Shown: piece after piece, positions 21,696 through 22,192 of the stretch
Numbering within the stretch: position 1 is the first letter of the stretch
How the letters are laid out: every line of letters begins with the position of its first letter
Assembly (NCBI GenBank): GCA_021498095.1
Contig: JAIZWK010000001.1
Span: forward strand, 600,001-632,000
Source: Candidatus Harpocratesius repetitus
GTDB taxonomy: Archaea > Asgardarchaeota > Lokiarchaeia > Sigyniarchaeales > Promethearchaeaceae
DNA length: 32,000 nt
Direction of reading: 5' to 3'
Program-made: the position numbers and the translations under genes
The notes under the pieces: generated by a model
Database searches by the model: none
What the model was told of the DNA's origin: nothing
The model's input: the letters and a program-made list of their open reading frames with translations, nothing else

Positions 21696-21992
21696 ATGCA
21701 TCCTGCTGACTATTCTGATGGAACTTCATTTGATACACACTATGATATTGAAGAATTACGAAGTTATAAATATATTTTGGGTGAATTTGGTGTTCAAATG
21801 CTCTTGGCTGTCGCTAGAGGAGCAGAAAATAAAAATTCAATTCAAATGCTTTCTGGAGTTCCTCATGCATGCATTGCTGGAAGGATGCCTGTGCTTCTTA
21901 ATTTAAAATTATTAAAACAAGAAGGAGAAGATCTCTTTAAATTAACCTCTAGAGGGCATGATTTTTTAAAATGTATTAAAGAATGTTTTTAA
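21696..21992 (+). CDS. Small winged-helix protein
   Basis: MLLAVARG...I..LSGVP...L.LKLL......FKLTSRG..FL pattern. Confidence 0.65.
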   Translation: MHPADYSDGTSFDTHYDIEELRSYKYILGEFGVQMLLAVARGAENKNSIQMLSGVPHACIAGRMPVLLNLKLLKQEGEDLFKLTSRGHDFLKCIKECF

Positions 21993-22066: not shown

Positions 22067-22129
22067 AGGCAATGATGATCCTATGACAAATGAGCGAACG
22101 CAATGACATTGTCGCCCCACGCTGAGCCT
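22067..22129 (+). ncRNA. Box C/D sRNA
   Basis: Terminal stem AGGC/GCCT; C box ATGATGA 22072-22078; D' ATGA 22090-22093; GCG-AA-CGC hairpin; C' AATGACA 22102-22108; D box CTGA 22122-22125; T-run after; GC-rich island in an AT-rich spacer. Confidence 0.8.
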
Positions 22130-22192
22130 TTTTATCTTGACGTCATTTTGACGTTATTACTTTTTTTATTAATCGAATTAATATTCATTTCC

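Follow-up and report, generated by a model that had tools for sequence, protein, structure and literature searches.

A class-wide dual-guide box C/D sRNA of Lokiarchaeia, predicted to direct methylation of the 23S rRNA P-loop and helix 89

The window, by which we mean the whole 32,000-nt stretch of Candidatus Harpocratesius repetitus DNA that was analysed, holds on its forward strand a 63-nt array of box C/D sRNA elements. The array is placed 75 nt 3' of an ORF for a 98-aa protein, which has a weak Pfam wHTH match, and a convergent 168-aa ORF lies on its far side. The features are as follows, with conservation given for an alignment of 20 sequences (A1) or for families of the same class (f1, to which the organism belongs, and f3).

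21696-21992, + strand: gene for the 98-aa winged-helix-like protein, its 3' end linked to the sRNA across the class
22067-22129, + strand: the whole sRNA, 63 nt, in the order C, D', C', D
22067-22070, + strand: 5' strand of the terminal stem, AGGC, partner of 22126-22129
Between the AGGC strand and box C, + strand: a single unpaired A, as read from the sequence
22072-22078, + strand: box C, AUGAUGA; in A1 the AUGAUG columns are invariant and the final A nearly so
22079-22089, + strand: D' guide UCCUAUGACAA, an 11-nt spacer whose core GACAA is nearly invariant class-wide
22090-22093, + strand: box D', AUGA (a CUGA variant); the GA is kept in the f1 homologues read and in most of f3
22094-22102, + strand: D'-C' linker GCGAACGCA, variable in sequence and length among homologues
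22103-22109, + strand: box C', AUGACAU, retaining the UGA of RUGAUGA; AUGA is invariant in A1
22110-22121, + strand: D guide UGUCGCCCCACG, a 12-nt spacer
22111-22119, + strand: D-guide core GUCGCCCCA, invariant in the 20 aligned homologues
22122-22125, + strand: box D, CUGA, invariant in A1
22126-22129, + strand: 3' strand of the terminal stem, GCCU, partner of 22067-22070
22130-22133, + strand: T run right after the stem, read from the sequence alone

A first-pass annotation had described an unannotated box C/D sRNA at this place, with a complete C, D', C', D layout and a 4-bp stem, and all of these parts are present. A layout scan that asked for RUGAUGA, 10-14 nt, NUGA, a C' box with UGA 11-13 nt before CUGA, and a stem of 4 bp or more returned one full match in the 4.36-Mb genome, namely the sRNA locus, and none in each of four first-order Markov genomes. 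The internal boxes D' (AUGA) and C' (AUGACAU) both retain UGA and are otherwise off consensus; among relatives, box D' reads AUGA, CAGA, CGGA, UUGA or CUGA and box C' reads AUGAUGU or AUGACGU. The D' spacer is 11 nt in this genome, 12 nt in most relatives and 13–16 nt in some, while in f3 a short hairpin with covarying pairs (GCUA..UAGC, GCUAC..GUAGC), predicted to form an internal K-turn, takes the place of the D'-C' linker. The T run after the stem is a possible archaeal terminator, and it is missing in some relatives; alignment of the homologues, which lie in AT-rich DNA, brought out no TATA-like element at a constant distance.

Searching 60 relatives with BLAST yielded full-length homologues of 81–86% identity in three genera of the organism's own family, f1, and, in the second family, f3, homologues with box C, the D' guide core, C', the D guide and box D. 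In alignment A1 the boxes, the GACAA of the D' guide and the GUCGCCCCA of the D guide are invariant or nearly so, while the linker and flanks vary. The terminal stem occurs as four unrelated sequences that are all complementary, (A/G/C)GGC/GCC(U/C/G), UUAGAUU/AAUUUAA, GACA/UGUC and UGCAU/AUGCA; the three inner stem pairs are paired in all 20 rows with 3–4 pair types each, and the stem covariation score is 0.815, whereas sliding the partner by 1–3 columns gives no more than 0.118. Of 151 genomes sampled from the class, 120, in 20 of 29 genera, gave exactly one match each with a covariance model built from A1, and strong matches of a phylum-wide model search were confined to that class. The named relatives are Promethearchaeota, among them Promethearchaeum syntrophicum MK-D1 (G011). 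By tblastn, a homologue of the 98-aa gene adjoins the sRNA in both f1 and f3, lying upstream on the same strand in f1 and in genus g13 and convergent with the sRNA in g9 and g15. Considering that this linkage spans both families, the sRNA locus is old, and the convergent copies, at least, need a promoter of their own. At the gathering score no Rfam family matched the window, E-value mode giving sub-threshold snoRNA matches only, and a limited literature search found no papers on Asgard C/D sRNAs. Taken with the layout, the single copy and the covarying stem, these comparisons bear out the first-pass description, and we regard the segment 22067-22129 as almost certainly a real box C/D sRNA.

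The D guide can pair with positions 2366-2377 of the organism's own LSU rRNA, which is the helix 80 P-loop, reading UGGGGCGCCA and, in wider context, GGUGGGGCGCCAG. The fifth base upstream of box D, C22117, faces G2369, the equivalent of E. coli G2251 (the numbering was verified on rrlH of MG1655, where UGGGGCG is 2249-2255 and G2251 its second G). Counted from box D, positions 2–9 form eight contiguous Watson-Crick pairs, position 10 is a U.C mismatch, positions 11–12 are paired and position 13 is a G.U. The first-pass annotation had likewise placed C22117 opposite the second G of the P-loop, and its 10-bp duplex stands in so far as the organism's own P-loop does pair, with the eight contiguous pairs at positions 2–9. 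The target it had assumed, UGGGGCGG(C/U)A (UGGGGCGGYA), is not the organism's own, which reads GGUGGGGCGCCAG, and in place of its one G-U there is the U.C mismatch at position 10, with an extra C-G at position 2. The assumed form is found in f3, in f2 and in more distant families, where the P-loop reads GCUGGGGCGGC(U/A)C and pairs with positions 3–11 of the D guide, with a G.U at position 10.

When the guides were paired against the organism's own 16S and 23S rRNAs, the P-loop was the top-scoring site for the D guide. At the same time, 96 of 400 shuffled D guides equalled the real score somewhere in 16S+23S, so that the match in this single genome is not above chance; it is meaningful because relatives keep it. 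In 22 of the 24 genomes with both RNAs assembled, 9–10 of the 10 positions from 2 to 11 pair (rRNA is unassembled in G003, G008 and G180, and the comparison of variant guides with their own targets excludes them), and of all D-guide sites the P-loop alone keeps its complementarity in the two large families of the class. The guide also follows its target in detail. At guide position 2, the f1 genomes with a readable P-loop have C against a target G; in f3 the target base is C and the guide never has C, but a pairing G in genera g11, g18 (G148), g19 and g20 and an unpaired A elsewhere. In genome G095, positions 10 and 12 are C and A, the Watson-Crick partners of the f3 P-loop. Position 5 stays on the G2251 equivalent in all lineages checked except genus g23, whose guide is shifted by one A; pairing with the P-loop is weakened there and in G054, which carries an insertion. 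Two other D-guide sites were considered and set aside, the 5' strand of 23S helix 92 (own 2665-2671), which is weaker at 7 bp, and a site near 23S position 1336 (GCGUGGGGC), which reaches 7–8 bp only if position 1 is counted. Two f1 genera have variant D guides, GGCGAUCCAC in G003 (locus L112) and GGCGCACCAC in G008 (L113), in both of which the position-10 mismatch with the f1 P-loop is repaired and the C run interrupted; the boxes of the G008 copy are degenerate (AUGACGA, CCGA).

The genome encodes proteins for an RNA-guided reaction. Genes for fibrillarin (269 bits) and Nop5 (215 bits) are adjacent at 1182387-1183921 of the genome, and there are two ORFs of the L7Ae family. As for a bacterial-type enzyme, the genome has a single match to PF00588 (the SpoU family), which is TrmJ/YjtD-like, scoring 194.5 bits with TIGR00050, above cut-off, and 43 bits with the RlmB model, whose cut-off is 160. 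No RlmB homologue was found in this genome, and since its sole PF00588 protein is TrmJ/YjtD-like and far under the RlmB cut-off, the RlmB route is not encoded. The first-pass prediction of a guide for the Gm2251 modification thus finds support in the top rank of the P-loop, in the pairing kept in 22 of 24 genomes and in the missing RlmB. Directing methylation of the Gm2251 equivalent is the best-supported function of the D guide, and judging from the pairing we consider it very probable.

For the D' guide, to which the first-pass annotation could assign no target, guide-target covariation points to the 5' strand of 23S helix 89, own LSU 2577-2587 (UUGUCGCAGGC), equivalent to E. coli U2457-C2467. 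In this genome alone three mature-rRNA sites tie for the D' guide, and it is the relatives that single out helix 89. The duplex here has 9 of 11 pairs, with an A.C mismatch at position 7 and G22085 facing C2581, and 290 of 400 shuffled D' guides reach the real score, so the match in this genome is not above chance. Across the class, GACAA faces UUGUC in most genomes while GACGA faces UCGUC in G014; (U)CCU faces AGG in genera g1 and g5 while CCC faces GGG in g6; and in f3 ACUU or ACUC stands opposite GAGU. The 5' base of the guide is a G facing C in G128 and an A facing U in G057 and G081. In G054 the Watson-Crick pairing of the D' guide runs unbroken over ten positions (UCGUGACAAC with GUUGUCACGA), and in G113 CGCGACAA pairs with UUGUCGCG. 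When duplexes are ranked by unconstrained energy, helix 89 takes first or second place for the D' guide in 12 of 15 genomes. We consider helix 89 the likely D' target in this genome, where it is the best-supported candidate, and our confidence in it as the predicted target for the class as a whole is higher.

The register on helix 89 varies by lineage, position 5 falling on E. coli 2459, 2460 or 2461. In the common 12-nt register position 5 is on the third U of UUGUC, own U2580, equivalent to E. coli U2460; in this genome (G000) and in G002 the D' spacer is one base shorter, and position 5 therefore faces own C2581. The 6-bp complementarity between the two guides (UGACAA/UUGUCG) that had been pointed out earlier is real, and it follows from the resemblance of the helix 89 target (UUGUCR) to the 5' end of the D guide (UUGUCG); as a selected intramolecular structure we rejected it, g6 breaking one of the pairs with no compensation. 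Other D' sites that we tried and rejected include 23S helix 71 (own 2069-2076, UUGUCGUA), which fits g1 and g5 only, reading UUGUCUGG or UUGUCUAG in f3, with 5 bp only, and UUGCC in G014; 16S 425-435 (CUGUUAUAGGU), which has a G.U at position 5 and is unconserved in f3; and the tRNAs, where the best duplex is no better than 8 positions with 2 G.U.

In another Asgard class, one weak match of the phylum-wide model, in genome G180, is a C/D sRNA in which the two guides are exchanged. Its parts, and a homologue in the same genus (G189), are:

L172, G180:C129:24129-24241: the G180 sRNA, with terminal stem GGGC/GCCC
5' part of the G180 sRNA: box C AAUGAUGG, D' guide UGCCGUCCCAAU, D' box CCGA
3' part of the G180 sRNA: box C' AUGAGGA, D guide UCUCGCGACGAU, box D CUGA
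L181:1480-1610, - strand: the G189 homologue

Here it is the D' guide that pairs with the P-loop, its position 5 opposite G2251, while the D guide matches helix 89 (UCGUCGCGGG) and has U2460 opposite its position 5. The G189 rRNA itself reads CGCUGGGGCGGCAG and GAGUCGUCGCGGGC; on these the P-loop register is kept and the helix 89 register is off by one base. By base pairing, then, P-loop and helix 89 specificities are coupled on one RNA in both classes, with the guides exchanged, and the survival of this coupling through a guide swap argues that the two rRNA segments are handled together in assembly of the catalytic centre.

Taken together, we think it probable that the RNA at 22067-22129 (+) is a dual-guide archaeal box C/D sRNA of the Lokiarchaeia class that serves as a guide for methylation at G2251 and in helix 89. 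Following the mechanism known for this RNA family, L7Ae would bind the K-turn formed by boxes C and D and the C'/D' motif, after which Nop5 and fibrillarin would assemble; each guide would pair with nascent 23S rRNA, and fibrillarin would 2'-O-methylate the nucleotide facing the fifth guide base upstream of box D or D'. The D-guide core GUCGCCCCA, on the helix 80 P-loop, would put own G2369 at position 5, while the D' guide, with its GACAA core and lineage-specific bases, would sit on the 5' strand of helix 89. In this organism the RNA-guided route would replace the bacterial RlmB, which the genome is without. The two targets, 211 nt from each other, both belong to the part of domain V that surrounds the peptidyl-transferase centre, and given this proximity the RNP may also hold the two segments together during folding.

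Within family f1 each guide has a further possible partner. The f1 D guide might also, or instead, target 16S rRNA at own SSU 951-960 (GGGGCGACAG), which would put position 5 opposite G952, near E. coli G988; in G000 this site offers nine contiguous Watson-Crick pairs (positions 4–12) and a G.U at 13, and it is found in genera g1, g5, g6 and g7. Yet positions 2 and 3, beside the methylation site, are unpaired, the f3 site reads AGGGGAGACAG and has a mismatch at position 8 with the guide unchanged, leaving complementarity in f1 only, g3 reads GGGGCGCCAG, the A at position 12 of the g6 guide breaks one pair, and the site falls below the P-loop in position-weighted scoring, so that we regard it as an improbable target. 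The D' guide, together with the first base of box D', matches the pre-23S trailer in G000 with 12 of 12 pairs, one of them a G.U. This trailer motif, UUUGUCAUGGGA, lies outside the window, about 70 nt beyond the 23S 3' end in both LSU copies (G000:C1:806014-806026 and 2303903-2303915), and of 1000 shuffled guides only 5 achieve 12/12 anywhere in the 23S or its 300-nt flanks. The motif supplies the 3' strand of the basal processing stem of the 23S; its partner in the leader, UCCCAUGGCAAAA, itself resembles the D' guide closely. A leader-trailer helix of this kind was also verified for G010 and G011, and G013 likewise carries a related trailer motif. The D' partner in f1 could accordingly be the trailer, instead of or besides helix 89, the sRNP competing with the 5' leader and acting as a chaperone of folding or processing, with its D guide kept on the P-loop. 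Against this, the match is restricted to f1, with nothing comparable in f3 and f2 trailers; in G001, G010, G011 and G013 it is no better than the helix 89 match; and it is for helix 89 that guide-target covariation is observed. Moreover, the trailer motif resembles helix 89 variants such as UUGUCAUGGGC of G144, and a guide selected on helix 89 would therefore match the trailer as a by-product. We hold the trailer to be an unlikely D' partner; the f1 match may be such a by-product of helix 89 likeness or a family-specific docking site on pre-rRNA.

Two readings do without methylation altogether. The RNA could be made and bound to rRNA and yet be selected only as an assembly chaperone for domain V, a role of the kind that Dennis et al. 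2015 (PMC4644070) propose for double guides. Drift of the helix 89 register by one base between lineages, D' boxes without GA in some g9 members and tolerated mismatches beside the target would all fit such a role. On the other hand, the P-loop register is kept in all lineages checked except g23, the guide-swapped RNA included, boxes C and D and fibrillarin are intact, and the site is methylated in bacteria and eukaryotes, which makes a chaperone-only role decidedly unlikely in our view. The most sceptical reading, a chance array of motifs in AT-rich intergenic DNA with no RNA gene, would draw on the shortness of the motifs and on a minimum-free-energy fold no stabler than shuffles (z = +1.8). 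MFE folding is uninformative for C/D RNAs, and unremarkable stability is what is expected of them. Chance is also contradicted by the single copy in 120 genomes, by invariant boxes and guide cores beside variable linkers, and by the covarying stem and conserved microsynteny, and we consider it scarcely credible. A methylation guide for G2251 and helix 89 is thus the reading that we prefer.

The G of the P-loop is methylated in bacteria, organelles and eukaryotes, by a protein in the first two and by a snoRNP in the eukaryotic cytoplasm, where snR67 is the yeast guide for the Gm2251 equivalent. RlmB of bacteria and Pet56/MRM1 of mitochondria act on the same nucleotide and give the same product as predicted here, but they are protein-only, stand-alone SPOUT methyltransferases. 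The consensus guide of snR67 (Rfam RF01177, SNORD31/U31 clan CL00053), UUGUCGCCCCAA, is identical to our D guide over 11 nt, including the U that gives a G.U rather than a G-C with a P-loop G. It sits beside box C/D' in snR67, whereas the D guide here is beside box D, and the second guides differ. Since the identity is largely forced by the identical target, it does not demonstrate homology. Rfam scores are far under threshold (snR67 13 bits vs 55, snoU31b 13.8 vs 37, nematode ceN111, RF01615, 19.6 vs 43), and at 13 bits against 55 the RNA falls outside the snR67/SNORD31 clan, with which it shares the guide alone. In a review, yeast Gm2619 and Arabidopsis Gm2620 are equated with E. coli Gm2251, and the Arabidopsis methylation is attributed to C/D snoRNPs.

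Archaeal sRNAs of thermophiles are also close: of seven archaea, three were predicted by Dennis et al. 2015 (PMC4644070) to methylate the E. coli G2251 position with a C/D guide. In that work 'sR7' is assigned 23S G2520/U2544 and Mka sR13 G2490/G2520, while 'sR17' and 'sR132' are assigned U2734/G2768, U2734 being predicted in two archaea; alignment G2520 is E. coli G2251 and, by a conversion that we made here, alignment U2734 is E. coli U2460. Those dual guides and ours are alike in RNP type, size, C/D'/C'/D boxes, guides of about 12 nt and predicted targets. In the thermophiles, however, the two sites are on different sRNAs with other partner guides, whereas they are on one RNA here and in G180/G189, and past the boxes there is no sequence relationship. 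The host, moreover, is a mesophile-type, AT-rich Asgard archaeon in which a strict motif scan gives few candidate C/D sRNAs. The RNA itself is of an ordinary kind, a standard box C/D type, and G2251 guides had been predicted in other archaea, but the class-wide sRNA family is new and previously undescribed. If its predicted role is right, a conserved guide RNA for the G2251 base is present, in single copy, among the Asgard relatives of eukaryotes, which would place an RNA-guided solution for this site in the lineage that eukaryotes arose from; cultured strains hold a concrete locus, which in Promethearchaeum syntrophicum MK-D1 is NZ_CP042905.2:252940-253014 (- strand).

A bolder proposal, which we rate as speculative and rather unlikely, is that the f1 sRNP couples folding of the peptidyl-transferase centre to pre-23S maturation and, separately, that snR67/U31 share its ancestor. 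If this were true, the D' arm would mimic the 23S leader strand on the trailer while the D arm holds the P-loop, and the sRNP of the Promethearchaeum/Lokiarchaeum family would be more than a methylation guide, a U8/U3-like chaperone. We know of no archaeal C/D sRNA for which such a role has been demonstrated.

The surroundings of the G000 rRNA genes, all on contig C1, gave some further observations. A leader stretch, UCCCAUGGCAAAAUUUUGU, at about 802647-802665 pairs with the trailer UUUGUCAUGGGA as the base of the processing stem, and the trailers of the two LSU copies are identical up to the UUUGUCAUGGGA motif and divergent afterwards. The rRNA genes (SSU 724577-726072; LSU 802841-805945; LSU 2300729-2303834; SSU 2304121-2305614) are partly unlinked, a lone 16S and a lone 23S lying about 77 kb apart, while in the second pair the 23S is followed by the 16S with 286 nt between them.

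Among the homologues, the sole model match in one g9 genome (L118, G073:C44:4463-4603, - strand) keeps the D' guide GCUUAUGACAA and the stem GAGAAAAAA/UUUUUUCUC and has a different D guide, UUUUGUCACUAUAAU, with an N run inside; either divergence of the copy or faulty assembly may lie behind this. In genus g5 (L005 and L011, in G006 and G010) a conserved hairpin, uuguuacauuauauguaacaa, lies about 20–70 nt upstream of the sRNA, and G006 has a second AAUGAUGA directly upstream of it. Outside the window, full C/D'/C'/D layouts are also present at G000:C1:3192612-3192667 (+), with a GGC/GCC stem and a T run, and at G000:C1:2018916-2018974 (+), and by their layout both are likely to be additional C/D sRNAs.
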